Of a DNA stretch of 55,542 nucleotides, positions 9,043 through 47,785 are shown piece by piece. Numbering within the stretch: position 1 is the stretch's first letter; every line of letters starts with the position of its first letter. A program made the position numbers and the translations under genes. The DNA comes from Rhodospirillales bacterium (GTDB taxonomy: Bacteria; Pseudomonadota; Alphaproteobacteria; Rhodospirillales; Casp-alpha2): NCBI GenBank assembly GCA_021775105.1, contig JAJFIJ010000027.1, forward strand, positions 1-55,542, given 5' to 3'. The notes under the pieces were generated by a model. The model was not told where the DNA came from. It saw nothing but the letters and a program-made list of their open reading frames with translations, and did no database searches.

Positions 9043-9197
9043 TGTTCTCCCCCAAGTGTTACTGGTTTTCGTTACCACCAGTCGCTCGCCATTAATTGCA
9101 CTCGACGTTTGAATTGATGATAAACAGGAATTTGGCCGTTGGCGAGAGGATCATTGGTTAATATTCACATGCGTGGTGCTTGCTCCCTACCCATACC

Positions 9198-12707: not shown

Positions 12708-13022
12708 ATGGATGAAAAACAGGCGGCTAAATGTTTAAGTGAACTGGGCAATCCGACGCGCCTCGCGGTGTACCGGTTGCTGGTCCGCGCCGGGCCTGAT
12801 GGCATGACCGTTGGAGACATTCAGCGCCGCCTTGAAATTCCGGCATCAACACTATCGCATCATATCGCACATCTGGTCTGGGCCGGGCTGATTGAACAGG
12901 ACCGCCAGGGGCGCACGCTTCATTGTCGCACAACGGACGGCATGATGAATGCCCTGATTGAATTTCTCAGCGCCGAATGCTGTGAAGGGTTTGACCGCAA
13001 CAATGAAACCGCAAGCGCCTGA
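12708..13022 (+). CDS. ArsR/SmtB-family metalloregulator
   Basis: 'LSELGNPTRLAVYRLL', 'TVGDIQRRLEIPASTLSHHIAHLVWAGLI', C-terminal vicinal Cys 'SAECCEGF'. Confidence 0.88.
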   Translation: MDEKQAAKCLSELGNPTRLAVYRLLVRAGPDGMTVGDIQRRLEIPASTLSHHIAHLVWAGLIEQDRQGRTLHCRTTDGMMNALIEFLSAECCEGFDRNNETASA

Positions 13023-13080
13023 GTTTTTTTAAACAGATAGTTCGATAATCGTCGAAATAATATAAGACAGGATTTTGACC

Positions 13081-14133
13081 ATGGATACCACACAGAACAT
13101 CGCCCCCCGGCAACCGGAGCGGAAATTCAGATTTCCAGCAATCAAAATCGACCCGGTCATTATCGTCTTCGCCGCCATCGTCGCCGCACTGGCCGTATTG
13201 GACAGTGCCCAAATTCCCACCAGTTTCACTTTTATGGCGGGGTCGCTCGGCTGGATTGCGCCGTTCTTTATCTTGTCCATTGGGGTCGCCGGTTACGCCA
13301 AGGCTAGTGGTGCCGAACATCTGATAGCCCAGGTCTTTTCCGGCAATCCGGTTCGCATGATTGTCGCGGCATCCGTATTTGGCGCTTTGTCACCGTTCTG
13401 CTCGATCGGCGTTATTCCCATTATTGCCGGATTACTGAGTGCCGGTGTTCCGCTGGCGCCCGTTATGGCCTTCTGGCTCTCATCTCCACTGATGGACCCT
13501 GAAATGTTTGTCATCAGTTCGGCTGGGCTCGGCTTGCAGTTCACAACCGCCAAAACCCTGTTTGCCATCATGATTGGACTGCTGGGCGGCATGACAACGT
13601 TGATGATGCAGCGTATCGGTTTTTTTGAGAATGCCGTTCTGAGCACTTCAGACGGTTGCGGCAGCTGCTGCTCGGCAGACAAATCCGACACGAAAGTAAA
13701 CTGGAAATTCTGGAACGAACCCGGTCGTCGTCAGGAATTCTTCGGCAGCTTCAGAGAAAACGGATGGTTTCTGGGTAAATGGCTGACCTTTGCCTTTCTG
13801 ATCGAAAGTATCATGATCGCCTATGTTCCGGCGTCGTTCATTTCAACCTGGCTCGGCCAGGATACATGGTGGACCCTGCCATCAGCCGTCCTGATCGGCA
13901 TCCCCACATACCTGAACGGTTTTGCGGCTGTTCCGTTAATGGCTGAACTGATCGAAATGGGTATGATGCCGGGCGCGGCAATGGCCTTCATGATTGCCGG
14001 TGGCGTTACCAGTATTCCCGCCGCCATTGCCGTTTTTGCCCTTGTCCGACGCGCAATATTTGCCTGGTATATCGTATTGGCGCTGATCAGTGCGTTGCTT
14101 TCGGGCAGTCTTTATCAGATGATTGCAATCTGA
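13081..14133 (+). CDS. Polytopic permease, DUF318/YraQ (ArsP-like) family
   Basis: About 8-10 hydrophobic helices, 'GALSPFCSIGVIPI' motif, Cys-rich central loop 'SDGCGSCCSADKS', directly downstream of the ArsR gene. ATG at 13081 (the ORF track uses the TTG at 13075). Confidence 0.7.
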   Translation: MDTTQNIAPRQPERKFRFPAIKIDPVIIVFAAIVAALAVLDSAQIPTSFTFMAGSLGWIAPFFILSIGVAGYAKASGAEHLIAQVFSGNPVRMIVAASVFGALSPFCSIGVIPIIAGLLSAGVPLAPVMAFWLSSPLMDPEMFVISSAGLGLQFTTAKTLFAIMIGLLGGMTTLMMQRIGFFENAVLSTSDGCGSCCSADKSDTKVNWKFWNEPGRRQEFFGSFRENGWFLGKWLTFAFLIESIMIAYVPASFISTWLGQDTWWTLPSAVLIGIPTYLNGFAAVPLMAELIEMGMMPGAAMAFMIAGGVTSIPAAIAVFALVRRAIFAWYIVLALISALLSGSLYQMIAI

Positions 14134-14181
14134 TCCGGCAGGAGCAGCCTTACCAAATCAACGTTGGCGGACCCCGACATC

Positions 14182-15390
14182 ATGCAATCAGAAGGTAACC
14201 GCCCGCTACGCCAGATTATCTGGTCTTTCGCGGTCGCCGAAACCATCGTCTGGGCAGCACTTTATTATTCTTTCCCGGCCCTGTTACCGGAATGGGAGCG
14301 CGATCTTGGCTGGACAAAAACTGAACTGTCAGCCGCCTTCACCTCTTCGCTGATTTTGTCAGCCCTGCTGGCCCCTTATGTGGGCCGGTTGATTGACCGC
14401 GGTCATGCTATTCGCGTGTTTCCCGGCAGCGCACTTTTGGGTGCCGTTCTTTTTGCCACATTGTCACTGGTCAGGGAGTTCTGGCAGTTTTACGTGATTT
14501 GGCTTGGGCTTGGTGTGGCCATGTCAGGCGCGCTTTACGAAGCCTGCTTTGCCATCGTCACGCGCGCAACCGGAGACAAAAGCAAGCAGGCGATAACCCG
14601 CATAACCCTTGTTGCCGGCCTGGCCGGAACAGTCTCGTTTCCATCAGCACACGCGCTGACCGGTCTGTTTGGCTGGCGAAATACCGTTTTGATTTTTGCC
14701 GCTACAGTCGCCGTTGTCGCCATTCCCCTGATCTGGTTCGGGTGCCGTTCTGCCCTCGATCAATTAAAAGCAACAAAAACCACCAAACAACATGAGAAAA
14801 CACCTGCTCGTGACGTCCTTAAATCAAAAATTTTCTGGCTTCTGGCGATTGCCTTCACCACGATTTCCATCGACCACGGTCTGCTGCTGACGCATATGCT
14901 GCCGATCATGGATGATCGTGGTGTCAGTCCGGAAATTGCCGTCCTCGCTGCCGCCATGATCGGCCCCATGCAGGTAACCGGTCGCATTGTCATGATTATG
15001 GTCGAACGCAAGGTATCCATATTCGGTATCGCGATCGGTTGTTTTCTGGCGATGGCTACGGCGGCCGGATTTCTGCTCGGCTCTGGAGGAATGTTGCCCC
15101 TGATATTCACCTTCGTCGTCTTACAGGGCGCGGGATACGGCGTCACCAGCATCGTCCGTCCGGTGATCACAGCGGAACTTCTGGGACGACAGAATTTTGG
15201 CGTCATATCCGGCATGCTGGCCCTGCCCTTCATGTTCGGGGCAGCCACCGCGCCAACGATTTCCGCCCTCGTCTGGTCACTTGGCGGTTACGATATGGTC
15301 ATCATGCTGGCCCAGATAATGACGGGCATCGGGTTGATAGCGCTATTGATGGCACGACGATCAACCGGGCGCGCACCACCAAACAAATAG
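14182..15390 (+). CDS. MFS transporter
   Basis: About 12 hydrophobic segments and MFS motif-A-like 'GRLIDRGHAIR'. ATG at 14182 (the ORF track uses the TTG at 14164). Confidence 0.8.
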   Translation: MQSEGNRPLRQIIWSFAVAETIVWAALYYSFPALLPEWERDLGWTKTELSAAFTSSLILSALLAPYVGRLIDRGHAIRVFPGSALLGAVLFATLSLVREFWQFYVIWLGLGVAMSGALYEACFAIVTRATGDKSKQAITRITLVAGLAGTVSFPSAHALTGLFGWRNTVLIFAATVAVVAIPLIWFGCRSALDQLKATKTTKQHEKTPARDVLKSKIFWLLAIAFTTISIDHGLLLTHMLPIMDDRGVSPEIAVLAAAMIGPMQVTGRIVMIMVERKVSIFGIAIGCFLAMATAAGFLLGSGGMLPLIFTFVVLQGAGYGVTSIVRPVITAELLGRQNFGVISGMLALPFMFGAATAPTISALVWSLGGYDMVIMLAQIMTGIGLIALLMARRSTGRAPPNK

Positions 15391-15629: not shown

Positions 15630-17828
15630 GTGGGGAATCCCGCTGTGAGCGCTGATAAGCGAAAGCTGATTGTCGGATCAGCTCTGATCGGGTTGGTTTT
15701 GTTTGGACTTGGCACATCCATTCTGACAGGGGAGCGACTGAGAGCGACCGCATACACCGACTGGGTAAACAAGGGCAAGGTCGATGCGCGCCGCATGACA
15801 GGCAGTATCCTGTTCTGGATATCCAAGGCCGAAGTCAATCTCCGCGCCATCGCCGGACAATTCCGCAGCGGACTGTATCCGGATCAGAAAACATTTTTCA
15901 AATTCATTGACGATGCTGAAACATGGGATCCTGACGTCACTTTCGACTCTGTCGTTTATGCAAAACGGATACTACGACAGGACCGGGACGCCAATGAAAA
16001 AGAGCAAGGCGCAGATATTACGGTTATTGGTTCGCGTGATCAGCGCGCCCCTGAAGTGTTCGAGAGTTTTGCGGTCGAACTGGTATCGCGCGACGACGGC
16101 ATTCTCCACATGCGATCCGACCTTACAACCCTTCCGGCAGTCAAGACAGCAGTCCTCACCGCTCGTCAAAGCCCTGGCCATGTGATTCTTGGCCCTGCAT
16201 TCAAAGGGAAAGACGGAGACAATCATGCCGTAATTGCAACTGTCACTGATCTCGCTGGCGGAACCGGGATCATGGCAGCGACGGTCAATCTGGTAGATTT
16301 TTTTTCCGGGTTTACCGCTGATTACCTACCCAACGGCATTCAGGTCCGGCTCATAGAACGCGACAGTGAATCTCGCGCCAAGAACCTCTTCATCCCGATC
16401 ATTGGAACCCTTGAACCCCCTGAAGATGTTGTCGCCACTGAAATTATTCGCATTACCAGCGGTCAGGCGCGATGGGACCTGCATTGGGACATCATGCCTG
16501 ATTATCTGGAAGGTCCGTCCAACCAATTTGCCCTTCTGGTGAGCATCGGGGGCTCAATCCTGACATTGCTGATTGCGTTTATTTTTTACGGGATCTCGAT
16601 GCAGAACATCCGGTTTCAGCGCTTGGTCGATGACCGGACGGCAGAACTTTCCCAAAATTCAATGCTGGTCCAGTTAACAATGGATTCCATTGATCAGGGA
16701 TTTGCCGTTTGGAATGCCGACCACAGGCTGGTGCTCTGGAGCAAACGCTGTGCCGATTTCTGGTACTATCCCAAGGGACTTCGGCCCGGAACGCATATGC
16801 AAGATTTACTCAAACACCTGGCGATGAACGGTGCCTTTGGCGAAGGGGATATTGAGGACATTGCCCATAGAGAGATGGCGCGGATCGTTGAAGCCGGCGG
16901 AGCATCCGACGAGATATTCCAGATGACCGACGAGCGTCAGGTACACGTCCGGCGCTTTCCGCTGGAGCACGGTGGATACGTTTCAATGTACACCGATGTA
17001 ACCGAACGCGAACGGGCATTGGAAACGCTCAGGAACTCTCATAATGTCCTGGAGCGCCGGGTAGCAGAGCGAACATACGATCTTGTCAAAGCGAGAGACG
17101 ATGCAATTTTGGCGGACCGCACAAAGAGCGAATTTATGGCTAATATGAGCCACGAGCTGCGAACGCCTTTGAATGCAATTATCGGCTTCTCGCAGATGGC
17201 CGCAGGCGAAATTCACGGTCCTCTCGGTGATCCAAAATACCTGGAGAATGCGTCCATCGTCGCAACCGCCGGAGAACATCTTCTGCAACTTATTTCCGAC
17301 ATTCTTGATCTTTCCAAAATCGAAGCCAAGGCGATGATTCTGGATGAAGAGAATGTCGATCTGGCAGAAATTGCCAAGGCCATTGAAAATATCATTTCAC
17401 CACGTGCCGAACAGGCCGAACTGGATCTGTCGATATCGGTTTCTCACGATATCCCCAATCTTAATTGCGACAAATTACGGGTTAAGCAGATGTTACTCAA
17501 TCTGACCGATAACGCAGTAAAATATACATCAAGCGGCGGCAAGGTTAGCATCAAGATCGATACGGATTCAGAAAATGCAATCCGGATCAGCGTTTCTGAT
17601 ACAGGTGTTGGAATCTCTGACGAAGACATTGAGCTTGTACTTGTTCCGTTCGGTCAAGTGAATTCAAACACAATGGTCCGCAACGGTGACGGGATTGGCC
17701 TCGGCCTCTCTTTAGTAAAACATATGGTGGAAATGCATGGCGGAACGCTGGCGCTGCAAAGCAAAATCGGTCAAGGCACGACGACAACCCTGCATTTCCC
17801 TGCCACCCGGACTGTTCAGACAAATTGA
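15630..17828 (+). CDS. Membrane sensor histidine kinase (periplasmic sensor domain, PAS, HisKA, HATPase); no receiver domain
   Basis: Two TM segments flank about 270 aa. PAS-like 'SIDQGFAVWNADHRLVLWS...YTDVTERE', H-box 'MSHELRTPLNAI', N-box 'LTDNAVKYT', G-boxes 'DTGVGI' and 'GIGLGLSL'. GTG start. Confidence 0.88.
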   Translation: MGNPAVSADKRKLIVGSALIGLVLFGLGTSILTGERLRATAYTDWVNKGKVDARRMTGSILFWISKAEVNLRAIAGQFRSGLYPDQKTFFKFIDDAETWDPDVTFDSVVYAKRILRQDRDANEKEQGADITVIGSRDQRAPEVFESFAVELVSRDDGILHMRSDLTTLPAVKTAVLTARQSPGHVILGPAFKGKDGDNHAVIATVTDLAGGTGIMAATVNLVDFFSGFTADYLPNGIQVRLIERDSESRAKNLFIPIIGTLEPPEDVVATEIIRITSGQARWDLHWDIMPDYLEGPSNQFALLVSIGGSILTLLIAFIFYGISMQNIRFQRLVDDRTAELSQNSMLVQLTMDSIDQGFAVWNADHRLVLWSKRCADFWYYPKGLRPGTHMQDLLKHLAMNGAFGEGDIEDIAHREMARIVEAGGASDEIFQMTDERQVHVRRFPLEHGGYVSMYTDVTERERALETLRNSHNVLERRVAERTYDLVKARDDAILADRTKSEFMANMSHELRTPLNAIIGFSQMAAGEIHGPLGDPKYLENASIVATAGEHLLQLISDILDLSKIEAKAMILDEENVDLAEIAKAIENIISPRAEQAELDLSISVSHDIPNLNCDKLRVKQMLLNLTDNAVKYTSSGGKVSIKIDTDSENAIRISVSDTGVGISDEDIELVLVPFGQVNSNTMVRNGDGIGLGLSLVKHMVEMHGGTLALQSKIGQGTTTTLHFPATRTVQTN

Positions 17829-18178: not shown

Positions 18179-18913
18179 ATGGTGAACAAGAGTCGTTCGA
18201 AACAATTGCCGATCATGCCATGCCTTGGTGCGCGTATTCGCGCCAAAACCGAATGGGCTGCGCTGACACCTGAAGAGACTGACTTGTTCAACCGGCGCGT
18301 CGTTTGCCGGACCTACGCCGCCGGAGAAACCATCTTCGTTCAGGGTGACCCTTGCAAAGGCCTCTATCTGGTTGAGGGCGGATTGGTCGCAGTTCGCAAA
18401 ATGGATGAAGAAGGTCAATCAGCAATCGTTCGCCTGGCTTATCAGTGTGACACCCTTGGTTACCGCCCCCTGCTCGCCAAGGAGAATCACCGCGCCACCG
18501 CCGAGGTGATAAAGGAAGCGAAAATCTGTTTTGTCGATGCATCTACGATACGCGGGTTTCTCAAAAGCAACCCTCGACTTGGCATGAATTTTCTTGAACA
18601 TACCGCGCGGGCTTTCGGAGAAGCCGAGGAACGACTATTTCAGGTTGCAGCATTGAGCGTGCGCATTCGCGTCATACATCTGCTGGTTTTGTTGCGTGAT
18701 CATTATGGAACAACCACAAGTGACGGCACACTATTTGTTGAACTGCCGATGTCACAACGTAATCTTGCGGAAATGATCGGGGCCCGCCCCGAGTCGGTAT
18801 CAAGGGCCTTGCGCAATATTCAGGATGAAGGGCTGCTGAACATGTCCGGTCGCACCATACGCGTCAATCATCTTGATCGTCTTATCGGTGAACTTCACCA
18901 CAACCTCCATTAG
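18179..18913 (+). CDS. Crp/Fnr-family transcriptional regulator
   Basis: Beta-roll effector domain 'GETIFVQGDPCKGLYLVEGGLVAVRK' and HTH 'SQRNLAEMIGARPESVSRALRNIQDEGLL'. No canonical FNR N-terminal Cys cluster. Confidence 0.85.
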   Translation: MVNKSRSKQLPIMPCLGARIRAKTEWAALTPEETDLFNRRVVCRTYAAGETIFVQGDPCKGLYLVEGGLVAVRKMDEEGQSAIVRLAYQCDTLGYRPLLAKENHRATAEVIKEAKICFVDASTIRGFLKSNPRLGMNFLEHTARAFGEAEERLFQVAALSVRIRVIHLLVLLRDHYGTTTSDGTLFVELPMSQRNLAEMIGARPESVSRALRNIQDEGLLNMSGRTIRVNHLDRLIGELHHNLH

Positions 18914-18982: not shown

Positions 18983-18998
18983 GATGACTTAAGTCATC
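18983..18998. promoter_or_regulatory. Perfect 16-bp palindrome, candidate Crp/Fnr-type operator upstream of the oxidoreductase operon
   Basis: GATGACTT/AAGTCATC, centred about 88 nt upstream of the ATG at 19079 and 70 nt downstream of the Crp/Fnr gene. Confidence 0.5.
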
Positions 18999-19078: not shown

Positions 19079-19828
19079 ATGAAAGCAACAGTGACAACCA
19101 TTTCCCGCAGAAATCTGGTCGGGAAAATTGGCAAGGGAGCAACTCTGGCCGCTGTAGCCACAGCTGTTCCCGGTCAGGCGAAAGCGGCAATTGCCCAGCG
19201 CCCTGTGCACTACGCAATGGTCATTGATACCCGTAAGTGTACGGGCTGTCATGCATGCTCCGTTGCCTGTAAAACAGAATTCGAGGTTCCCCTGGGGGTT
19301 CATCGTTCCTGGGTGGAATATGTCGAAAAAGGAACGTACCCGAACGTCAGCAGAAGTTTCCTTCCGCGACTGTGCAATCAGTGTTCCGAGCCCGACTGCG
19401 TCAGCGTCTGTCCAACAGGCGCAACGTACAAAAGGGAAGAGGACGGGATCATCGTCGTTGACGCCGAAAAATGCATCGGCTGCAAGTACTGTATGCAGGC
19501 TTGCCCTTACGATTCCAGGTTTGTTAACCCCAACACCGGCACCGTCGAAAAATGTGATTTCTGCCTGCACCGGGTAACCAAGGGGCTTGAACCCTCATGT
19601 GTCAATACCTGTCAGGGCAGGGCAAGAGTCTTCGGCGATCTGAACGACCCGGATAGTGAGGTGGCCAAACTCGTTGCTACTGAACCGGTTACGGTGCTCA
19701 GGCAAGAGATGGGAACTCAGCCGAATGTTTTCTACATCGGCGCTGATCATGCGGATGAAAACGACCTGCGCGTCCCGGGACAATACGTCCGGGTCGATAC
19801 GCATCGTCCCGCTCTGGAACGGAGGTAA
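19079..19828 (+). CDS. 4x[4Fe-4S] ferredoxin-type electron-transfer subunit of a DMSO-reductase-family enzyme, with its own Tat leader
   Basis: 'ISRRNLVGK' twin-arginine leader. Cys clusters CTGCHACSVAC, CNQCSEPDCVSVCP, CIGCKYCMQACP, CDFC...CVNTC. Confidence 0.9.
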   Translation: MKATVTTISRRNLVGKIGKGATLAAVATAVPGQAKAAIAQRPVHYAMVIDTRKCTGCHACSVACKTEFEVPLGVHRSWVEYVEKGTYPNVSRSFLPRLCNQCSEPDCVSVCPTGATYKREEDGIIVVDAEKCIGCKYCMQACPYDSRFVNPNTGTVEKCDFCLHRVTKGLEPSCVNTCQGRARVFGDLNDPDSEVAKLVATEPVTVLRQEMGTQPNVFYIGADHADENDLRVPGQYVRVDTHRPALERR

Positions 19829-19833
19829 GGGTT

Positions 19834-20835
19834 ATGCAAGAACTACATTGGGGTCTCCCTGTCATAGGGTATTTGTTTTTAGCTGGTGTCGGCGCAGGTG
19901 CCTATACCGTAAGTTCGTCCGCCCTGTTACGTGGCGGTGCGAACGGCGTTACCAGCGACAACTTTGATATCGCCCGGTATGGCGCCCTGTTGGCGCCGAT
20001 TCCGATGATCGTTGGAACCGGCATGATTATCTTTGAGCTGGGAACTTTCCAGGCCGCCGTCGCCAATGGCGACATCGGATTATTCTTCAAATGGATCAAT
20101 CTGTTCCTGACCATCAACATGTCGCCGATGAGTATTGGTTCATGGGTGCTTGGCGTATGTATTATCGCCAGCGTCCTTTATGCCTATACATTCCTTTCCA
20201 GTAACAGTGCGCCTGACGATGCCAATAACGGTTTGCGCCAGAAGATGGCATGGATCGGAGTTCCGCTCGGAATTGCCGTGGCAATCTATACCGGTGTGAT
20301 GCTCGGTGCGATGCCTGCAAGGCCGTTCTGGAACACGCCGATGCTGGCAATTCTGTTCCTGATCTCATCTCTGTCAACCGGTGTCGCAGGAATCCTGCTA
20401 TTGCGCGCATTGTTCGCTCATGGTCAAACTGCACCGGCAAGCGACCCGCCAACTGATCTCGACCATAGTGTCGGCAAGGGTGCCTATATGCTTGCATCAT
20501 CCGATGTGAAGCTGATCGGGCTTGAGTTACTGGCAATTGCCCTGTTCATTCTGTTCGCCAAACTGGCCATCGGCAACGCGTCCGAGGCGGTGTCGATCAT
20601 TCTGCCCGGCGGCGCTCTGGCAACCATGTTCTGGGGCGGTGTCGTCGTCGTCGGACTGCTATTGCCGATGCTGGTCGAACTTAAATACGTGATTCCGGCC
20701 CTGCGTCATCAGCAACCATATGCCATGCCCCGCGGAACCGAAATCGCCGTTTGTGCCGTTATTCTGTTTGGCGGATTCATGCTGCGCTACGTCGTGGTCG
20801 CGGCCGGTCAGATGACCGGTCCCATGGGAATTTGA
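19834..20835 (+). CDS. NrfD/PsrC-type integral membrane quinol-interacting anchor subunit
   Basis: 'WGLPVIGYLFLAGVGAGAY' start typical of NrfD-family proteins, about 8 hydrophobic helices, 5 nt after the FeS gene. Confidence 0.85.
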   Translation: MQELHWGLPVIGYLFLAGVGAGAYTVSSSALLRGGANGVTSDNFDIARYGALLAPIPMIVGTGMIIFELGTFQAAVANGDIGLFFKWINLFLTINMSPMSIGSWVLGVCIIASVLYAYTFLSSNSAPDDANNGLRQKMAWIGVPLGIAVAIYTGVMLGAMPARPFWNTPMLAILFLISSLSTGVAGILLLRALFAHGQTAPASDPPTDLDHSVGKGAYMLASSDVKLIGLELLAIALFILFAKLAIGNASEAVSIILPGGALATMFWGGVVVVGLLLPMLVELKYVIPALRHQQPYAMPRGTEIAVCAVILFGGFMLRYVVVAAGQMTGPMGI

Positions 20836-20845
20836 GGAGACGATT

Positions 20846-23380
20846 ATGTTAAATCGACGTAACTTTTTACAGGTTGGTGCCAGCGTACCACTTGCAGCAC
20901 TGGCCGGTGAAGCATTAGTCCGACACACCTCCGCAGGACCCGTGATTGGCGGCAAGGACTTCTCGCCAACCACCGGCAAGGAACGCCAGGCTATTCCCAG
21001 CGCCTGCTGGCAATGCGTGACCCGTTGCCCCAACATCTCCTATGTGGAGGACGGACGACTGGTCAAGATCGAAGGGCAGCCGAATTCCATCAGGACCAAT
21101 GGGGTGATGTGCTCCAAGGGTCAGGGCGGCATCGGTCAATACTCTGATCCGGATCGCATTCTCCACCCCATGCGTCGTGTTGGTAAACGCGGCGAAGGAA
21201 AATGGAAACGGGTCAGTTGGGACGAAGCCCTCAGTGAACTGGCGGAGCGTATGAAGAAACTGCGTGACGATGGAACGCCGGAAAAAGTGATGTTCCACTA
21301 TGGCCGCATGAAAGCCAGCCATTCCAAGCTGATCAAGAGCCTGTTCCTCGCCAATTACGGGACCGGCACCATTGGCAATCATACCTCGATTTGTGAGGCC
21401 GCCAAGTGGACGGCGCAGGAAATGACCTGGGGTGGTCATTACGACAACTGGGACTTCGACAATACCAACTACGTGCTGAACTTCGGTTCCAACGTACTCG
21501 AAGCTCATACCAACCACATCCCGACCGCACATCGATTGATCAAGCGATTGACTGACGGCAACATCCGTATGGTGACCTTCGATGTCCGACTGTCAAACAC
21601 CGCCGCCAATTCGTCAGAATGGGTGCCGGTCAGACCCGGTACAGACCGCGCCGTCGTCCTTGCGATGTGCAACGTGGTGATGAACGAAGACCTGTATAAA
21701 GGTGAAGGGGAAGCCTTCCTGAAGTTTGTCAAGGTCACCGCCGGCCTGAATCCCGGCATCGACGACAAGGTCGCCGCTCTGAAGACTCACCTTGCCAGGT
21801 ACACGCCGGAATGGGCTGAGAAGGTCAGCGGCGTACCTGCTGACAAGATCCGCACCATTGCCCGTGAAGTTGCGACCGCCAAACCGGCCTGCATCATCAG
21901 TTACCGCGGTGCGGTTGCGCATCATCATGGTGCGGATACCGAGCGTGCAGTGCAGATGCTGGCCTCAATCACCGGCAACGTCGACAATCCGGGCGGTCGG
22001 TGCAAGGCTGTCGGTGCCAAGTGGAAGTACCCGAAGGGACCGAAGAACAAACCGAAATCGCGCAAACTCAAGATTCTCGACGGACTACCCGGTGCGGCCA
22101 AAATGCCGACCCATCATGTCAACCACCAGGTTCTGAAGATGATCAAGGACGGCAGCGCCGGAAGACCGAACATCTATATGTGGTACTGCTACACGCCGGT
22201 CTATGCCAACGGCGAGGTCCAGGAGAACATCGACATTATGAAGGACGAGAAACTGATCCCGTTCAGTGTTTGTGTTAATCCGTTCTACGACGAGTCGGCG
22301 GCTTTGGCTGATCTGATCCTGCCCGACACCCCCTATACGGAACGTTGGGGTTATGAAGATATGGTATCGCCGACGCAGGTCGCGGAATATTACATTCGCC
22401 AGCCGGCCGTGAAGCCGCTCGGTGACTCCCGTGATTTCGCCGACGTCTGCATTGAACTTGCTGATCGCATGGGCTTCCCGCTTGGCGTCAAGAGCCACGA
22501 AGAGTTCGTCAAGGTGTCCTGTGAAAAAACGCCGCTGATCAAGGCGGCGGGTGGCTTCGAGTATATGAAAGCCAACGGTGTTTACCATGACCCGAAAGCC
22601 AAGCCGAAGTTCTTCTCCTATAAGAAAGTTCTCAAACCCGAACAATATGAAAAGGACGGTATCGTCAAGGATCCGGAAACGGGCGTCTACTGGAACTGGA
22701 AGAAGGCCAAGGTAGCGAGCGTCGAAGATGCTTTGAAAAAAGGCTACACGCACACCAAAAAGTCCTACAAAGCCTACGTCGGCCAGGAAATCGATGGCGT
22801 GGTGTACTCGGGTTTCAAACCTGACAAGCTCAACAAGTCTGGTTTCATGGAGCTCTACTCCGAAATCGTCGAAGCCAAGGATCTTCCGGCCATGCCGTCA
22901 TGGATGGCGGCACCGGAACATGATGCAATGAAACCCGGTGATCTGATCCTGACCACCTTCAAGGTCTCCACGCAGATCCATTCGCGCTCTGCAAACTGTA
23001 AGTATCTGACCGAAATAACGCATGACAATCCAGCCTGGATCAATCCACAGACAGCTCTGGAAAAAGGAATAGCCGAAGGCGATGCGATTTCGGTGACCTC
23101 ACCGTTCGGCGAGATCAAGACCACAGCCAGAGTGACACCAGCGGTCGTCCCAGGCACTGTGGCAATTTCTCATCATTGTGGTCATTGGGAATATGGTCGG
23201 TACGCATCCGGCAAGAAAGCGCCAGACGGGCGTCCCGGTCCAAAGGCCGACAATATCTGGTGGAAAACAAACGGTGCGCATCCAAACTGGATCATCGGCA
23301 ACAAGGCCGATCCCATATCGGGACAGTTGCGCTTTATGGACACCGTTGTAACCGTCAAAAAGGTCGGGGCGCGTGCGTGA
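20846..23380 (+). CDS. Molybdopterin (bis-MGD) oxidoreductase catalytic subunit, Tat-exported; substrate unassigned
   Basis: Tat leader 'MLNRRNFLQVGAS', FS0 motif 'CWQCVTRC' + 27 residues + C, probable Mo-ligand Cys in 'GNHTSICEAAK', 844 aa. Confidence 0.9.
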   Translation: MLNRRNFLQVGASVPLAALAGEALVRHTSAGPVIGGKDFSPTTGKERQAIPSACWQCVTRCPNISYVEDGRLVKIEGQPNSIRTNGVMCSKGQGGIGQYSDPDRILHPMRRVGKRGEGKWKRVSWDEALSELAERMKKLRDDGTPEKVMFHYGRMKASHSKLIKSLFLANYGTGTIGNHTSICEAAKWTAQEMTWGGHYDNWDFDNTNYVLNFGSNVLEAHTNHIPTAHRLIKRLTDGNIRMVTFDVRLSNTAANSSEWVPVRPGTDRAVVLAMCNVVMNEDLYKGEGEAFLKFVKVTAGLNPGIDDKVAALKTHLARYTPEWAEKVSGVPADKIRTIAREVATAKPACIISYRGAVAHHHGADTERAVQMLASITGNVDNPGGRCKAVGAKWKYPKGPKNKPKSRKLKILDGLPGAAKMPTHHVNHQVLKMIKDGSAGRPNIYMWYCYTPVYANGEVQENIDIMKDEKLIPFSVCVNPFYDESAALADLILPDTPYTERWGYEDMVSPTQVAEYYIRQPAVKPLGDSRDFADVCIELADRMGFPLGVKSHEEFVKVSCEKTPLIKAAGGFEYMKANGVYHDPKAKPKFFSYKKVLKPEQYEKDGIVKDPETGVYWNWKKAKVASVEDALKKGYTHTKKSYKAYVGQEIDGVVYSGFKPDKLNKSGFMELYSEIVEAKDLPAMPSWMAAPEHDAMKPGDLILTTFKVSTQIHSRSANCKYLTEITHDNPAWINPQTALEKGIAEGDAISVTSPFGEIKTTARVTPAVVPGTVAISHHCGHWEYGRYASGKKAPDGRPGPKADNIWWKTNGAHPNWIIGNKADPISGQLRFMDTVVTVKKVGARA

Positions 23381-24101
23381 CCTAACGCCAGACATCGGCC
23401 ATGACGAGTTGGCCAGGAGCGCCATGGAGCGAAGTCGGCTCTATGGCCTTCTGGCCACGGTTTTTCGTCACGAACCATCGGCTGAATTTTTATGCCAGAT
23501 GAAAACACCTGAAATGATGGTTGCCTTGGCCGGTGCAGGAGTTGAGTTGGGCGAAGAGTTCGAGACAGACCGGTTCGCCGATATCAGCGAAAAACTGGGC
23601 ATTGAATACACACGTTTATTTCTGGGGCCGGGGAAACACATCTCGCCACACGAGTCGGTGCAGCTAAAACGCGGCAGCGGTATCCTGTGGGGACCAGAGA
23701 CATCAGCGGTTCGAAAGACCTATCGTGCCGCCGGACTGGATCTCGGTGAGAACGAAACTGTCCTTCCGGATCATCTCAGCGTTGAGTTGGATTTCCTGGT
23801 TTTACTGGCAAAGGAAGAGGCCGAAGCTTGGGAGAAGTTGGAATATGACAGCACGGCCAGATCCCTGCATCTCCAACATGGATTCATCTCCCGTCATCTT
23901 GGAAAATGGGTAGGCGGGTTCTGCAAAAAGGTCAAAGAGCAAGCAGATTTTGCTTTCTATCCAGCATTTGCCGAACTCCTGCGCGGGTTTTTGTCAGGTG
24001 AAAAATCTGAAATCATCAGTAGACTGAACCTGATTGATGCAAATGACCCCCTTTTCTCTGATGACGGGGAAAGTAATAATCTTAGATCTATCAATGGGTA
24101 A
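23373..24101 (+). CDS. TorD/DmsD-family redox-enzyme maturation chaperone
   Basis: 'RLYGLLATVFRHEPSAEFL', 'EYTRLFLGPG', 'LPDHLSVELDFLVLL'. The GTG at 23373 overlaps the catalytic-subunit stop; an ATG at 23424 is an alternative start. Confidence 0.8.
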   Translation: MRDLTPDIGHDELARSAMERSRLYGLLATVFRHEPSAEFLCQMKTPEMMVALAGAGVELGEEFETDRFADISEKLGIEYTRLFLGPGKHISPHESVQLKRGSGILWGPETSAVRKTYRAAGLDLGENETVLPDHLSVELDFLVLLAKEEAEAWEKLEYDSTARSLHLQHGFISRHLGKWVGGFCKKVKEQADFAFYPAFAELLRGFLSGEKSEIISRLNLIDANDPLFSDDGESNNLRSING

Positions 24102-24768
24102 TCAGCGAAATTCCGATTCTGGTCGCGCAATACCCTACCGAACCACGGCGGATGCGTTGGTGGTAAGTGCGCTGGTAGTCATCATCTTATCAGCGGCGAC
24201 GGTAAACGCCTCAGCATGTGGCTGGTGGGGCGATGGTGAGAACGACGAAACTGAATCCATAACGATAGGCGCAGACGGGCACCCGGTTTCAGAAGACATC
24301 GAAAAATCTGGGATACCCTATGGACTACAAGTACCCGCGCCAAGATCCGGTTATGGTATGGTTGTCCTGCAGGGCGGAACAGCAATGCCCTATCTGCATG
24401 TGGTCAAAGACAACTCCATCCACTCAATCCAGCAACTTCGCCAATTTGGGTTCCCCGCAGTTATCGATCTTGGTACGCCCCCTGCGGTTGCAACACTGCA
24501 TCAGCTGGAAACCGGTCCACTTGGAATGAAATACTTCAATATTCCTCTGGATCAGGGCGTTCCGGGCGAAGCCGATGTCTTGCGGTTTAGCGAAATTATC
24601 TCAACCTGGGAAAACCTGCCGATTTTGGTATTCAGCGCATCGGCCAATCAGCTGGGAAGATTGTGGGCCAATTATCAGCTACTTGAAGGCTTTTCCCGGA
24701 AAGATGCTGTCAGGCAAGGACGGCAGTTGGGTTTGACCGAAGACGATATCCGCAACCTTCGAAAATAA
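24094..24768 (+). CDS. Exported (possibly lipoprotein) protein with a DUF442/PTP-like fold and a degenerate active-site loop
   Basis: The ATG at 24094 overlaps the TorD-like stop (ATGGGTAA). Signal/lipobox-like 'LSAATVNASAC'. 'GFPAVIDLG...KYFNIPLD...PILVFSASANQLGRLWAN' resembles the DUF442 layout, with Ser where the Cys is expected. Confidence 0.55.
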   Translation: MGNQRNSDSGRAIPYRTTADALVVSALVVIILSAATVNASACGWWGDGENDETESITIGADGHPVSEDIEKSGIPYGLQVPAPRSGYGMVVLQGGTAMPYLHVVKDNSIHSIQQLRQFGFPAVIDLGTPPAVATLHQLETGPLGMKYFNIPLDQGVPGEADVLRFSEIISTWENLPILVFSASANQLGRLWANYQLLEGFSRKDAVRQGRQLGLTEDDIRNLRK

Positions 24769-28030: not shown

Positions 28031-31000
28031 ATGTTCGCAAAGGCGTACATTGGTGCGGCTATTCTTCTGGCGTCAGCACTCATCAGTGGGTGTCAGACGT
28101 CAGGTTCGTCTTCAGCCATTTCCAAGGAAGAAGCCCTGAAGATTGCCGTCGAGTTTCAAGCAGCATCACCTGTTGTCGCGGCACGCTCAATTGATGGCTT
28201 CCTGGGGAAATTTGAAATCCTTGCAAAATGGCCCTGTGGAAATTCGGTGCAAGACACGCCCTCCAGTCGCCGTGAGATGTTCAAAAAAATAATCGCTGGT
28301 TTGCCTGAATACAACAATCAGCGCGGCATCACCAAACAGACAGAAGCTCAAGACGGCGCAACAAATGCCTTTCTGCGCGGTAACGTTTCCAACGCCGTTG
28401 AATATACTGATTGGGCAATCACGACCGTCAGGCGCTATAATTTTGGCAGTAATCCATGGACGGGATATCACGCGATACACAGCTATCAGCAGGCCTTTTA
28501 TCTGGCCTATGCTGGCGATCTTGAACGCGCCGAAAGCCTGTATTTTGACGGCACAGCGTACAGTACGGAAAGATGGCAAGACCCTCGAAACGTATACTGG
28601 CTGTACGCTCATCAGTATATGGCGGACGGTGCCATTAAACGCCAGAATGGAAGGTTGGATGCAGCAGAACTTTCCTTCAATACCGCACTCGGATTTCTAG
28701 CCCGAGCCATGCAGGTTTTTGAAGGAGATAATTCCCGATTTGCCGGTTGGTGGACACGGCGCTATCGCGGGAAAATACTTCTGGTTAAATCTGAATTAGG
28801 GTTGACGCTGCTTGCTCAAGGACGCGAAGCGGAAGCGGAAGCCCTGCTTCGTGACACTGTTAATTTCAGCGGCTTGGTGGAGATGGACAGCAAGCTCTAC
28901 ATCGCTTTTTTAATTGGTCGAGTTAGTGAAGTCCTGAGCGCTCAAAACCGCCATCTGGATGCTTTCAAAACTGCATCGCTCGCAAAACGCATTTATTCAA
29001 GCGTATGTGCCGATGGTGGACTTAGCTCCGCTGAAGTTCGCGAAAGACTGGCTCGTGCTCAATTGGCGCTTGGCAACTTTGATGATGCCAAAAATACCTA
29101 TGCTGAAATGGATAAATATTTTGAGGCGGACAAAAGGCTGCTTAATCTGAAATTTGGCGACAGCCTTGCGCGTGCATTCAACGAAATCCTGTCGGGAGAT
29201 TATTCAGAGGCATCGAAACGGCTGGATCTGGCCCTGAACCGGACAATAGAGCGGTTTGGTAAGGGTACCTCACGTCAGGCACTGATCATCGGACTCAGAG
29301 GGTTGATGCAGGCAACAAAAGGAGAGACTGAAGCGGCGCGGCCCCTGTTTGAGCAGGCAATGGTTGAGTTTTATCAAACACAGGGTCAAGCAGATTCGAG
29401 AGATGACTGGCTGAAAAAATATATTACAGACGGTTATCTTGACCTGCTGCAGAAAGGCGGCTCGCCCGACGATCTCTCAAAGGCTTTCGAGATTGCCCAA
29501 ACCCTTGAAAACGGCAAGGTTCAACAAGCGCTTCGCCAAAACGCCGCCCGCGCAGGAGCCAACAACCCCGAACTTGCCGACCTGATCCGTCAGGAACAGG
29601 ATCTGGGACAACAGATCGACGCCCTACGTCGCACCCTGAACTCCGCCCTTTCCAGCGCCGACAGCAAAGCCCAGGCGTCCGCCGAAAAGGTCAAGGCAAG
29701 CTTGCCTGCGCTGTTTCAGGCACGTCAGGAACTGGCCGCTGATATTGCCAACAAATTTCCGGAGTTCGATGAACTGATCAACCCACGCCCGTTGACGGTG
29801 GCCAAGTTGCAATCGCACTTGCCAAGTAATGGCGCTGTAGTAGTTGTCCGAACGACCGACAGCGCAACACAGGTCTGGGCCGTTCCCAAACAGGGAGATT
29901 TGATTTTTAAAACGATCCCCATTGGTCGCATTGAGTTGAATGAAACGGTGAAAGAAATAAGACGCGCTGTCGATCCGGGTGCGATTGCCAGTCTTGGTGA
30001 CATTCCTGCATTCGACACGGCAACGGCCTATGAACTTTACAACGCCCTTCTGGCCCCTGTGTCCAAAGCCTGGAAACAATCACGCTCTCTCTATGTTGTG
30101 ACTCAGGGTCCCCTCGGGCAATTACCCCTGTCCCTGTTGCCAACAACGCCAAACAGTAAAGGTGACGACGGCAATGTGCTGTTTGCCGGATATAGAAATG
30201 TAAACTGGCTGGCCAACTCGCACGCGGTCACTGTACTTCCCAGTGTTGGCGCGGTTGCGACCTTCAGTGGACAGACCTCAACAGCCAAGCGTCGTCCGTT
30301 TGTCGGTTTTGGCGATCCGTTTTTTAGTGGCGGGCAGGCGCTTGCCGCCACCAAGCCCGTCGAAGTTGCGCAAAACACACAAACCCGGTCTGTTACGTTG
30401 CGCTCCAAACCACAAACCCGATCCGTTAACAGCGCCGATCTTGCTATGTTGCCACGACTTCCGGATACCCGGCCTGAACTTCAGGGTATCGCCAGATCAC
30501 TTGGGGCCAATCAGGCAACTGATCTGTATCTCGGGCTCCGCGCCAATGAACAACAGGTCAAGACCATGGACCTACGCCCCTATAAGGTTATTGCCTTTGC
30601 AACGCACGGTCTGGTTCCGGGCGATCTTAACGGGTTACATCAGCCGGCCCTTGCGCTGTCGGCCCCCGGCCCTTCCAAATCCGAAGGGGATGGTTTGCTG
30701 ACTATGGCCGAAATTCTGGGACTGCGCCTCAACGCCGACTGGGCCGTCCTGTCCGCATGTAATACAGCCGCTGCCGATGGAGAAGGCGCTGAAGCCATAT
30801 CCGGGTTGGGCCGGGCATTTTTCTATGCCGGTGCCCGCGCATTGCTGGTCTCAAGCTGGCCGGTACATTCCGGTGCGACGACAGAACTGACCACGACGCT
30901 GTTTGGACTTCAGGCAAAAGACCGCACTCTGGCGAGAGCCGAGGCCCTTCGCCAGGCCCGGCAGCATCTGATCCGGAATGCCGGTTATCAGGCGGACGGA

Positions 31001-31069
31001 AAGATGCTGTTTGCCTACGCCCACCCTATATTCTGGGCACCTTTCACCATTGTCGGCGATGGTCGCTAA
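28031..31069 (+). CDS. Lipoprotein with TPR-like repeats, a coiled coil and a C-terminal CHAT (caspase-like) domain
   Basis: Lipobox 'LLASALISGC'; long helical repeat region. CHAT dyad contexts 'IAFATHGLVPGD' (His) and 'WAVLSACNTAAADG' (Cys), then 'AFFYAGARALLVSSWPV'. Confidence 0.8.
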   Translation: MFAKAYIGAAILLASALISGCQTSGSSSAISKEEALKIAVEFQAASPVVAARSIDGFLGKFEILAKWPCGNSVQDTPSSRREMFKKIIAGLPEYNNQRGITKQTEAQDGATNAFLRGNVSNAVEYTDWAITTVRRYNFGSNPWTGYHAIHSYQQAFYLAYAGDLERAESLYFDGTAYSTERWQDPRNVYWLYAHQYMADGAIKRQNGRLDAAELSFNTALGFLARAMQVFEGDNSRFAGWWTRRYRGKILLVKSELGLTLLAQGREAEAEALLRDTVNFSGLVEMDSKLYIAFLIGRVSEVLSAQNRHLDAFKTASLAKRIYSSVCADGGLSSAEVRERLARAQLALGNFDDAKNTYAEMDKYFEADKRLLNLKFGDSLARAFNEILSGDYSEASKRLDLALNRTIERFGKGTSRQALIIGLRGLMQATKGETEAARPLFEQAMVEFYQTQGQADSRDDWLKKYITDGYLDLLQKGGSPDDLSKAFEIAQTLENGKVQQALRQNAARAGANNPELADLIRQEQDLGQQIDALRRTLNSALSSADSKAQASAEKVKASLPALFQARQELAADIANKFPEFDELINPRPLTVAKLQSHLPSNGAVVVVRTTDSATQVWAVPKQGDLIFKTIPIGRIELNETVKEIRRAVDPGAIASLGDIPAFDTATAYELYNALLAPVSKAWKQSRSLYVVTQGPLGQLPLSLLPTTPNSKGDDGNVLFAGYRNVNWLANSHAVTVLPSVGAVATFSGQTSTAKRRPFVGFGDPFFSGGQALAATKPVEVAQNTQTRSVTLRSKPQTRSVNSADLAMLPRLPDTRPELQGIARSLGANQATDLYLGLRANEQQVKTMDLRPYKVIAFATHGLVPGDLNGLHQPALALSAPGPSKSEGDGLLTMAEILGLRLNADWAVLSACNTAAADGEGAEAISGLGRAFFYAGARALLVSSWPVHSGATTELTTTLFGLQAKDRTLARAEALRQARQHLIRNAGYQADGKMLFAYAHPIFWAPFTIVGDGR

Positions 31070-34100: not shown

Positions 34101-34703
34101 GGCATCCAGGAATGCCGCAGAATAATCCCTGAAGGCGACCGAACGGGACAGTGAATTGGCGCTATCCCAATTATGAAATAATGCTGGTGACAATAACGTA
34201 AACATCGCCGCCGCCAGAAGAACCCCGGCAATGGTCAGGTCGAAATAGGCAACAAACAGGAATATTACGGGCGGGGTCATCAGGGCGACGAAAAAACACG
34301 GCAGGTATTTTCCGTAATACACGCCGAGATGTTCAACACCATCAATTGCTGCTGTCGCAATATCGCCGGTATGTGAATTCGCATGCCGGGCTGGTCCCAA
34401 TTTGATCACATGATCAAAGATCATGGCCCTGATTTTGCGTTGTATCTTTACGCTCGTTTCATGCGAATGCATGGCCCGCAGGTAATCCCAGATCGCGCGG
34501 AAAACGATAACAGCAACAGTTACCACCCCCGGAATCAACAGGTCATTCAGGGTGCCACCCGACAGGGCAATTCCCAGCAGCCATCCCAGCAGGACCAGCC
34601 GAACGATTCCGGCAACCGATGAAATCAACCCCATTGCAATTGCCCAGCCAATACGGCCACGATATCCAGAAGTCAACTGCCAGAGCCGGAGATCAAAATG
34701 CAT
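31107..34703 (-). CDS. Fused ABC exporter (TMD-NBD-TMD-NBD in one 1198-aa chain), CydD/CydC-like
   Basis: Two Walker A sites ('GPSGSGKSS', 'GPSGAGKST'), two signatures ('LSGGQRQRIAIARAL', 'LSGGQRQRVSIARAF'), two 6-helix membrane blocks. Confidence 0.88.
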   Translation of the reverse strand: MHFDLRLWQLTSGYRGRIGWAIAMGLISSVAGIVRLVLLGWLLGIALSGGTLNDLLIPGVVTVAVIVFRAIWDYLRAMHSHETSVKIQRKIRAMIFDHVIKLGPARHANSHTGDIATAAIDGVEHLGVYYGKYLPCFFVALMTPPVIFLFVAYFDLTIAGVLLAAAMFTLLSPALFHNWDSANSLSRSVAFRDYSAAFLDALQGLATLKAFGRSREYAAVLGEKAHKLTHTTKWVLATSSLTRGITDTGIAVGAAVALGVGAFRVVDGSMDIATLLIILMLGVEVFRPLRDLRTVLHDGMLSLAASKQIFSILDEQPLIQDAVDDAEMGGALEPTIEFADVQFQYPGGRGMIHKKVSFRIGAGERIAIVGPSGSGKSSIVRLLSRFYDPESGTIRIGGKDLKSLSFDTIRKHLAIVSQDTHLFHGNVAENLLLGRPDASPEQMRQAAITANAHEFIMKLPDGYGTIVGERGIRLSGGQRQRIAIARALLRNSPILILDEALSSVDAENEAIIQEALDRLMIGRTTLILAHRLSSVIAADRILVLDNGSITAQGTHKELMATEGTYHALMARQVEERQEGRAEKQVIIDSAPEVGPSEPLREHAGSERLDSMLRAEGLGWFATIRELMRHVMPWKGRLVLTFGLGVSRVVAFIGVSVLSALAVAAVKNDLEFMTYLYALAVLAPAAGILHWLESWVAHDMAFNLLADMRIKLFRKLSQLAPAFLTRRRSGDIVSLATHDVDMVEYFFAHTIAPAFVAILVPATVLILLYSFHWSLAAALVPSLVIVALTPVFLRQRIDRIGSALREAFGLMSAHTIETVQGLNEVLSFEATGNRREAFLGLVDWCEDIRLPFMRDNNIRQVFVEAVTGIGTLSVILTGTFLVQAGTVEGAYMPLMALVAMAAFLPVSEIADVGRQLANTLGATQRLKAVHDEEVTITDGDLDVSIPEHGGMEAAFSNVTFSYPGTVVPALDDVSFSLPAGKTIALVGPSGAGKSTLAHLLMRFWDPQSGQVSLQGIDFKACKLDQIRHATALVAQDTYLFNDTLLANLKIADPQATDAKIENVIKQASLKEFVEALPDGLQTRVGERGFSLSGGQRQRVSIARAFLKDAPILILDEATSHLDSISERAVHEALSKLMEDRTTLIIAHRLSTVRNADLIIVMDNGRIAEQGTHNELIQNDGLYAGLVDHQMIAGNKVAAE

Positions 34704-35801: not shown

Positions 35802-35982
35802 ATTATCGCCATAGTTCCGTGCACAAACATCATGGCTACGCTATCCACCCACTCAGGCGAACCGCACTTTGGTGTCATAATTTTCTTGTTTTACTTCAAT
35901 GAGCGGACTAGAATCCTGAGTCTATAGCTATGAAGGGCAGGCAAGAATGCCGTAGCCCCCATAAGCGTTGGGACAAGTGACC

Positions 35983-46902: not shown

Positions 46903-47044
46903 TTTCCATTCGCCTCCGACGCCTGATCCAGTTCGAAAATATCATATTCATCTTTAATATAGTATCATTTATCACTACTATCGTTAAGGAAATATCGAGT
47001 GGCATACCCGCTTGTTCACCTGAGTTGACCGGAGATCAACGATC

Positions 47045-47773: not shown

Positions 47774-47785
47774 AATTTTTACAAA

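Follow-up and report, generated by a model that had tools for sequence, protein, structure and literature searches.

A conserved operon may encode a new kind of arsenic-respiring molybdoenzyme in marine bacteria

RESULTS

Genes and products of the operon

The subject of this study is a molybdoenzyme operon at positions 19079 to 24768 of a 55,542-nt contig from a Rhodospirillales bacterium (JAJFIJ010000027.1); the contig as a whole is referred to below as the window. Its five genes, B, C, A, D, and E, are listed in Table 1 with the other features of the window. An earlier reading made from the sequence only had described five co-directional genes at these coordinates that are closely spaced or overlap, and open reading frame (ORF) calls confirmed this, with gaps of 5 nt (B/C) and 10 nt (C/A) and overlaps of 8 nt each at A/D and D/E. 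The longest ORF in the E reading frame begins at a TTG at position 24034.

Table 1. Features of the window in order of position
Feature	Position	Strand	Description
Second Crp/Fnr-family gene	8344-9078	-	Likewise without FNR-type N-terminal Cys cluster
Metal/metalloid efflux-like module	12708-15390		The three genes that follow; not conserved beside relatives of the operon
ArsR/SmtB-family regulator	12708-13022		C-terminal Cys-Cys pair
PF03773 permease	13075-14133		Nearest relatives in the SO_0444/SaoE efflux families
Major facilitator superfamily (MFS) transporter	14164-15390		Weakly ArsK-like (165 bits on ArsK model, cut-off 400)
Histidine kinase	15630-17828		
Crp/Fnr-family regulator	18179-18913	+	Pfam cNMP-binding and HTH_Crp_2
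Palindrome GATGACTTAAGTCATC	18983-18998		Perfect, 16 bp; 81 bp 5' of B start codon
B	19079-19828	+	249 aa; TtrB-like subunit for electron transfer with four [4Fe-4S] clusters and a twin-arginine leader of its own
C	19834-20835	+	333 aa; NrfD/PsrC-type membrane anchor with quinone/quinol site; 8 predicted helices
A	20846-23380	+	844 aa; predicted exported molybdenum-bis(pyranopterin guanine dinucleotide) catalytic subunit with FS0 cluster
D	23373-24101	+	242 aa, GTG start; TorD/DmsD/NarJ-family maturation chaperone
E	24094-24768	+	224 aa from ATG; exported, degenerate dual-specificity-phosphatase fold
TPR and CHAT-domain protein	28031-31069		1012 aa; signal or lipoprotein-like N terminus
Fused ABC transporter	31107-34703	Opposite to preceding gene	1198 aa; two ABC_tran plus membrane domains
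ORF	35968-38094		708 aa; no Pfam match
Flavocytochrome-c sulfide dehydrogenase (FCSD)-like flavoprotein	43142-44416	+	
Thioredoxin-like and DsbD/CcdA-like genes, then soxB, soxA, (soxZ), soxY, soxX	46264-52560	-	
soxX, soxY, soxA, soxB	48557-52560	-	Confirmed by curated models

Subunit B has a Fer4_11 domain, four Cys clusters, and the twin-arginine translocation (Tat) leader ISRRNLVGK. It is 44% identical to TtrB, 52 to 57% identical to Ttr-type B subunits, and 36 to 37% identical to ArxB, which, unlike B, lacks a leader. Subunit C matches Pfam NrfD (5.6e-37) and has eight hydrophobic segments in the same crude Kyte-Doolittle scan that gives nine for TtrC; the published helix counts are eight for PsrC/NrfD and nine for TtrC (PMC8076601). 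Against the TtrC model itself, C gave no match at all. Subunit D belongs to PF02613 (Nitrate_red_del/TorD type; 1.1e-23), and its gene lies directly 3' of A in nearly all related loci. The eight-helix NrfD/PsrC-type anchor and the TorD/DmsD-type chaperone had both been proposed before and stand. With a four-cluster iron-sulfur (FeS) subunit, an NrfD-type anchor, and a TorD/NarJ-family chaperone, the locus has the accessory subunits of a complex iron-sulfur molybdoenzyme, and from its predicted products the locus is an intact operon for a Tat-exported, quinone-linked, membrane-anchored molybdoenzyme.

Catalytic subunit A and its pocket

Subunit A comprises the Pfam domains Molybdop_Fe4S4, Molybdopterin, and Molydop_binding. 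Its translation contains the Tat leader MLNRRNFLQ, the FS0 motif C54-X2-C57-X3-C61-X27-C89, and Cys183 in the context GNHTSIC183E. These motifs, like the leader of B, had been noted earlier and were read again in the translations. Cys183 aligns with Cys193 of ArrA and with the ligand Cys of PsrA and is likely to be the molybdenum (Mo) ligand. Its three domains, the FS0 motif, and Cys183 where the Mo ligand is expected place A in the Cys-ligand group, which supports its previous assignment to the broad set of Cys-ligated molybdoenzymes that act on sulfur, selenium, and arsenic compounds.

Glasser et al. in 2018 reportedly identified R165, Y166, H189, S190, K198, and Y210 as the residues by which ArrA contacts arsenate and arsenite. 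In the sequence alignment, R165, H189, S190, C193, K198, and Y210 of ArrA correspond to R154, H179, T180, C183, K187, and Y199 of A. Five of the six contact positions are conserved or conservatively replaced, and the sixth, Y166, is Met155. At most pocket positions PsrA, PhsA, TtrA, and DmsA differ from A and ArrA; PsrA and PhsA lack the Gly-Arg, His-Thr, and Tyr residues. The role of ArrA R165 as a contact residue has been confirmed (PMC12949373). The Gly-Arg pair of A, G153-R154, lies in the local motif YGRMKA; in a 2026 study such a pair was common to all arsenic-metabolizing Arr, Arx, and Ttr-like enzymes and missing in true Ttr (PMC12949373).

Relation to characterized families

We tested A with the NCBIfam equivalog models and their cut-offs, none of which it reached. 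It scored 342 bits on PhsA (cut-off 694), 307 on DmsA/YnfE (778), 191 on ArrA (1600), 185 on QrcB (440), and 124, in four fragments, on TtrA (NF011567; 1750). For calibration, the last model gave 1211 bits for an Azospirillum Ttr homologue and 663 for a Ttr-like enzyme from Citrobacter. The top PDB matches were PsrA (2vpw, 5e-52) and then ArrA (6cz7, 5.6e-51), both at about 28 to 30% identity. Overall, identity to the references was 23 to 30% (23 to 25% for TtrA-type proteins, 28 to 29% for Arr/Arx, 28 to 30% for Psr/Phs). Reference loci were taken from plasmids and comprised ttrRS/ttrBCA (Escherichia coli plasmid pC27A-4, L090), phsABC (L087), dmsA (L088), arxXSR/arxB2ABCD from Sulfuricella pSCD (L086) and Cereibacter pORIO3 (L089), the Ttr-like B-C-A cluster of a Citrobacter arsenatis plasmid (L091), and the Azospirillum Ttr homologue (L092); ArrA and PsrA sequences were transcribed from PDB alignments. 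In bootstrapped neighbor-joining trees, a split with 93 to 97% support parted the A lineage from TtrA, Ttr-like enzymes, ArrA, ArxA, PhsA, PsrA, and DmsA, and ArrA and ArxA formed a clade of their own (79 to 100%) with the A lineage outside.

The operon resembles Ttr in its layout. Salmonella and the pC27A-4 reference share with it the B-C-A order and Tat leaders on both A and B, which are the published criteria for ttrBCA (PMC12949373). The sequence-only reading had relied on that order, on the pairing of ttr with TtrSR, on the size of TtrA, and on the catalytic-subunit-first order of phs and arx, and all of these hold on the reference loci L090, L087, L086, and L089. It had also argued that A is not a bona fide TtrA. 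Nesting of A inside a characterized clade, which that reading had named as a refutation, was not seen in the trees, and we rejected the identification of A as TtrA: it has 844 aa against 1021, only 23% identity and a fraction of the model score, an eight-helix anchor, a Gly-Arg pair, and a TorD-type chaperone gene, and Pfam and NCBIfam scans found no TtrS/TtrR two-component system in the window. Membership of Ttr thus fails because catalytic subunit, helix count, and regulatory partner all mismatch.

The Ttr-like arsenate reductases (Anaeromyxobacter PSR-1, Geobacter OR-1, Pyrobaculum) are a known group for which the C. arsenatis LY-1 cluster, probably a plasmid-borne Ttr-like arsenate reductase, served as proxy. 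It shares the B-C-A order and the Gly-Arg pair with the window, and its B is 52% identical, but Ttr-like catalytic subunits are proteins of about 1000 aa within the TtrA family, to which A, at 24% identity, does not belong, and this assignment was rejected too. On the plasmid (NZ_CP037863, 24.9 to 41.6 kb) the cluster has a weak TorD-like gene and is divergent from arsRDABC; its A has 1008 aa, and two dual-specificity-phosphatase genes and arsC follow. Phosphatase-type genes are thus near both clusters, the window having a degenerate one 3' of D. The FeS gene of this cluster also occurs on plasmids of Citrobacter freundii, Enterobacter, and Salmonella, under the annotation "DsrO."

PsrABC and PhsABC have an eight-helix NrfD-type anchor and a catalytic subunit of similar size, but their order is A-B-C, B has no Tat leader, and the trees and the PhsA score separate A from them; A was not accepted as a member. 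For ArrAB(C) (Shewanella ANA-3, PDB 6cz7) the contact residues, apart from Tyr166, align with identical or conservative residues of A; the order is A-first and the identity 28%. Arx (arxB2ABCD with arxXSR, in Alkalilimnicola, Azoarcus CIB, Sulfuricella pSCD, and Cereibacter pORIO3) is built of like parts: its Mo subunit is Tat exported, of the Cys type, and carries FS0, its FeS subunit has four clusters, the anchor is of the NrfD type, and the chaperone is of the TorD type. It also shares the Gly-Arg, His-Ser/Thr, and Tyr pocket positions with A. However, the Arx order is B2-A-B-C-D rather than B-C-A-D, ArxC has about 400 aa against 333 in the window anchor, B is TtrB-like, A is 29% identical, and the window has a Crp-type regulator and the exported E instead of XSR and B2. 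Of the motifs (R/K)GRY and XGRGWG, A keeps only Gly-Arg, and Arr/Arx membership was rejected. From these comparisons the A lineage is judged to be distinct from Ttr, Psr/Phs, and Arr/Arx.

A widespread lineage with a standard gene order

At least 120 clusters (at 90% identity) of proteins of about 840 aa are 67 to 89% identical to A and carry generic names only. They come from metagenome-assembled genomes (MAGs) of Rhodospirillales, other Alphaproteobacteria, Gammaproteobacteria including Acidiferrobacterales, and Magnetococcales. The lineage is drawn almost wholly from uncultured marine Alpha- and Gammaproteobacteria, Desulfobacterota, and some other groups. Among species-representative genomes there were 587 confirmed relatives of A. 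The best 80 of these are nearly all from MAGs, with hosts in Rhodospirillales, Sneathiellales, Kiloniellales, "Candidatus Thiodiazotropha," Guaymas and Black Sea Gammaproteobacteria, Syntrophobacterales, Desulfobacteraceae, Nitrospirota, Nitrospinota, and Neomarinimicrobiota. Fifteen aligned family members have a mean column identity of 79% and keep the whole FS0 motif and GNHT-ICE.

The layout of the operon had previously been called nonstandard. This does not hold for the lineage, in about 80 loci of which B-C-A-D, or B-A-D with cytochromes, is the rule. In the variant without NrfD, found in Desulfobacterota, Nitrospirota, Kiloniellales, and some Gammaproteobacteria (L009, L011-L014, L025, L031, L035, L093, L095, and L096), an NrfH/NapC-type multiheme cytochrome of about 510 to 520 aa precedes B'-A-D, in some loci with an EB_dh heme-b domain protein; the replacement of NrfD by a multiheme cytochrome implies that these enzymes connect to the quinone pool in another way. 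Tandem copies, B-C-A followed by B-A-D, occur in gammaproteobacterial MAGs (L017, L018, L021, L028, and L036), and in L018, L028, and L036 the next genes are one of about 200 aa with no assigned function and then those for an AioX-like sensor and a kinase.

Outside the lineage, the nearest clades are an Omnitrophota/Isosphaeraceae group at about 45% identity and a beta- and deltaproteobacterial group at about 40%, which includes the cultured Azoarcus sp. KH32C, Aromatoleum toluclasticum, A. buckelii, and Hydrogenophaga taeniospiralis. Beyond these, an exhaustive search of 50% representatives found as nearest proteins uncharacterized MopB proteins of about 750 aa at 34 to 40% identity, many without the ligand Cys. 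Judged by homology and synteny, A is a member of a distinct, widespread, and uncharacterized lineage with B-C-A-D as its standard order. In the limited library available to us, no description of the family was found by accession or topic.

The Crp-family regulator and the exported protein E

The sequence-only reading had named a Crp/Fnr protein and an orphan kinase as regulators, and of these only the former is conserved with the operon. Its gene is directly 5' of B in the window, in L081/L082, L094, and L002, and near the cluster in P0109. The closest relatives, L081/L082 (A 88% identical) and L094 (A 87%), have the same six genes, and on this gene order the conserved module is Crp-B-C-A-D-E. 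The histidine kinase, the MFS transporter, the ArsR/permease pair, and a TerB-like gene are not conserved neighbors in relatives. The L094 cluster adjoins the fumarate reductase genes frdABCD.

The Crp-family protein 5' of B has no FNR-type Cys cluster and no close characterized relative, and its assignment to a sensing subtype failed. It likely controls the operon, and the palindrome between the two genes, the core of which (TGACTTAAGTCA) recurs 5' of B in L081, is a candidate for its operator. A scan for sigma-70 promoters and terminators did no better than on shuffled sequence. The second Crp/Fnr-family gene of the window lies about 10 kb away from the first.

Protein E gave no significant match to Pfam, NCBIfam, or PDB sequences. 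Its AlphaFold model (mean predicted local distance difference test [pLDDT] score, 81) matches atypical dual-specificity and protein tyrosine phosphatases and DUF442 phosphatases in Foldseek (E value about 1e-4; TM score 0.5 to 0.6 on the target). The phosphatase fold proposed earlier for an exported fifth protein is therefore borne out by the model, but the catalytic P-loop (Cys-X5-Arg) is missing: the loop reads SASANQLGR, without Cys, and its Arg is not conserved in 19 homologues. For the latter reason an S-X5-R oxyanion loop, which we had considered, was dropped. The mature N terminus does not vary: behind an AxA cleavage site it reads CGWWGDGE. E is rare, with 25 homologues. Homologues adjoin D in L081, L094, L095, and L096 and lie about 1.6 kb 3' of D in L002, in clusters of differing architecture. 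In L095 (a 3.58-Mb gammaproteobacterial genome) and L096 ("Ca. Thiodiazotropha") the homologues are 35 to 38% identical and stand in opposite orientation beside D of a cytochrome-B'-A-D cluster. By this recurrent neighborhood E appears tied to the enzyme despite its rarity. When the profile of E was compared with that of the phosphatase on the Citrobacter plasmid, the probability was 10%, which is not significant.

Arsenite sensor genes beside relatives

In L083, whose A is 69 to 70% identical, three genes run divergently from B. Their products are a binding protein similar to PhnD, a kinase with a HAMP domain, and a sigma-54 regulator. The binding protein aligns with AioX, which senses arsenite, at 4e-64 and with ArrX, which senses arsenate, at 1e-37. 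All seven residues of the AioX pocket (Y88, C106, Y131, S161, S163, H192, and D210) are conserved in it, as is the signaling loop that is missing in ArrX (residues after PMC5908839). An AioX-type sensor (X) with all pocket residues and a kinase flank six gammaproteobacterial members in total (L083, L018, L028, L036, L095, and L096); the regulator gene was seen in L083, and the five other loci end inside the kinase gene. When tested with ten oxyanions, tetrathionate and thiosulfate among them, AioX and ArxX bound none but arsenite; an X protein in each case binds the substrate of its own enzyme (PMC5908839).

A sigma-54 promoter, TGGCGC-N5-(A/T)TGC, lies 5' of B in L083 and L085 and also in most loci of the betaproteobacterial sister clade at about 40% identity, and two or three GTTAC-N6-GTAAC palindromes lie in intergenic regions of L083, L085, L048, L095, and L096, which in L083, L095, and L096 are those by the sensor genes. 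Canonical arx promoters have palindromes of the same form (GTTCG-N6-CGAAC and GTTAC-N6-GTGAC), and Arx and the relatives thus share AioX/ArxX-type sensors, sigma-54 promoters, and palindromes of the type GTTNN-N6-NNAAC.

Nearly all sister-clade loci carry a sensor-kinase-regulator set (XSR) with the AioX pocket residues. The conserved cluster of this clade consists of XSR and B-C-A-D with five more genes 3' of D, one of them collinear with ArxB2 (E value, 1e-14). Acr3 is encoded within 8 kb in seven of these loci, and arsA-Acr3 abuts the cluster on the Azoarcus KH32C plasmid pAZKH. On pAZKH (NC_020548, about 55.9 to 68.2 kb; L085), as in L044-L080, XSR is divergent from B-C-A-D, and the genes 3' of D are, in order, DUF309-like, His_biosynth-like, rhodanese-like, ArxB2-like FeS, and one more. 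From its gene content, the sister-clade cluster looks like an undescribed arsenite-responsive molybdoenzyme in cultured strains. A second complete AioX-like X-S-R set with all pocket residues lies 3' of the first cluster in L083 (14767 to 18414), and a mer operon lies upstream on the same contig.

DISCUSSION

We propose that A, with its Mo cofactor on Cys183 and the FS0 cluster, and B, with four [4Fe-4S] clusters, would each be exported in folded form by Tat, after maturation with the cytoplasmic TorD-type chaperone D, and would dock, facing the periplasm, on the eight-helix anchor C. The quinone pool and the substrate would then exchange electrons via C, B, FS0, and Mo. E would play an accessory part as an exported protein whose phosphatase fold lacks the catalytic loop, and the upstream Crp-family regulator would probably act through the palindrome at 18983 to 18998. 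The substrate would be an arsenic oxyanion, with arsenite oxidized to arsenate or arsenate reduced to arsenite. Taken as a whole, assembly and substrate together, this is the best explanation that we can offer, and we hold it tentatively, at a little under an even chance. Its narrower part, that the enzyme is a quinone-linked oxidoreductase of a new lineage acting on an arsenic oxyanion, is possible and somewhat short of even. The sequence-only reading held that the substrate cannot be assigned; orthologue context and pocket residues now favor arsenic over tetrathionate, a preference that we infer.

As to direction, this enzyme class is reversible. Family members under AioXSR-type control probably oxidize arsenite, to judge from their sensors. 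For the Crp-regulated window copy, whose close relative in L094 adjoins fumarate reductase genes, anaerobic arsenate reduction is equally possible, and alphaproteobacterial copies under Crp control may serve it instead.

A number of observations weigh against an arsenic substrate. The window has neither XSR nor ars genes, and neighbor-family counting found no ars genes beside about 30 loci of the query family; their neighbors encode multiheme cytochromes, two-component systems, and phosphonate-type binding proteins. Three more X-like proteins, those of L034, L035, and L025, have diverged, and their pockets are incomplete. We had considered the ArsR, permease, and MFS genes of the window as an arsenic link and rejected it as weak, the permease being nearest to Cu/Zn efflux proteins and SaoE, the ArsR generic, and the MFS protein unrelated to that of the closest relative. 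Likewise, the Gly-Arg pair was downgraded as a stand-alone arsenic marker since it is found in many uncharacterized relatives, some without the Mo-ligand Cys; it is permissive rather than diagnostic. The AlphaFold2 model of A (from a 15-sequence alignment) has a pLDDT of 48, too low for pocket geometry, and the trees were built without SrdA, SreA, SoeA, SrrA, AnrA, and the Anaeromyxobacter and Pyrobaculum Ttr-like reductases. Finally, PhsA is the best-scoring curated model for A, and the hosts are often sulfur cycling, the window host being a sulfur oxidizer.

The last points are shared by a reading in which the enzyme is a quinol-linked respiratory reductase of tetrathionate, thiosulfate, or polysulfide, similar to Ttr, Phs, or Psr, in a sulfur-cycling host. 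The ttrBCA-like order, the two Tat leaders, and the similarity of B to TtrB fit it, as do PsrA as top PDB match, the sox and FCSD-like genes in the window, the occurrence of the family in sulfur oxidizers and Desulfobacterota, and the DsrE, rhodanese, and TauE genes near L095; moreover, tetrathionate reduction by a Psr homologue is known from Shewanella (PMC12949373). Yet A falls outside both the Ttr and the Psr/Phs clades, with a TtrA score far below that of even a divergent Ttr-like enzyme, the anchor has eight helices and not nine, and TtrSR is missing. Where ligand sensors are present they are of the AioX/ArxX type, which did not bind tetrathionate or thiosulfate (PMC5908839), and the pocket residues match ArrA and not PhsA, PsrA, or TtrA. 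We consider this reading unlikely.

Less probable again is another chalcophile oxyanion, such as antimonite/antimonate, selenate/selenite, or tellurate. A positive pocket (Arg, Lys, His, and Tyr) would suit tetrahedral or pyramidal oxyanions in general, and Sb(III) could be bound as well by an AioX-like sensor that bears a Cys. The B-C-A order is also that of the selenate reductase srdBCA (PMC10100899), and SrdA and AnrA stand outside our comparison set; however, SrdA belongs to the TtrA family (PMC10100899), outside which A lies, and the Acr3 and arsA neighbors of the sister clade fit arsenic or antimony, not selenium. A noncatalytic electron-transfer module that keeps the molybdoenzyme fold, like ActB of alternative complex III or QrcB, is suggested by the QrcB score and by the many nearest relatives at 35 to 40% identity without the Mo-ligand Cys, but is very improbable given the GNHTSICE context, FS0 motif, and pocket residues that are invariant across the family and the gene for a TorD-type cofactor-insertion chaperone that is always beside A.

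Returning to arsenic as the substrate, we put forward, with more reserve, that the lineage and its betaproteobacterial sister clade might be an unrecognized family of respiratory arsenic enzymes, independent of Aio, Arr/Arx, and the Ttr-like arsenate reductases. Such a family would combine the B-C-A-D architecture with AioXSR-type arsenite sensing or Crp-type control, might have in the periplasm a dedicated partner with a phosphatase fold and no catalytic activity, and would perhaps be distributed over marine and groundwater Proteobacteria, sulfur-oxidizing symbionts, and Desulfobacterota. Current metagenome markers of arsenic respiration and anaerobic arsenite oxidation are aioA, arrA, arxA, and, recently, the Ttr-like genes. 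If the proposal is true, arsenotrophy is being undercounted in marine sediments, oxygen-deficient waters, symbionts, and aquifers, and the family would be a new independent case of a molybdoenzyme scaffold tuned to arsenic. If the substrate differs, it is still a large, highly conserved, and unnamed respiratory enzyme. The cultured carriers of the sister clade make the enzyme directly testable.

Of the remaining features of the window, the sox genes deserve comment. The sequence-only reading had placed them about 19 kb from the operon and considered a thiosulfate/tetrathionate cycle conceivable. The actual distance is about 24 kb, and nothing supports such a cycle, the sox genes merely lying elsewhere in the window. 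soxZ would fall between soxY and soxA, and no soxCD was seen in the window. The genes between the operon and the FCSD-like gene include those for the TPR and CHAT-domain protein and the fused ABC transporter, which face in opposite directions (Table 1).

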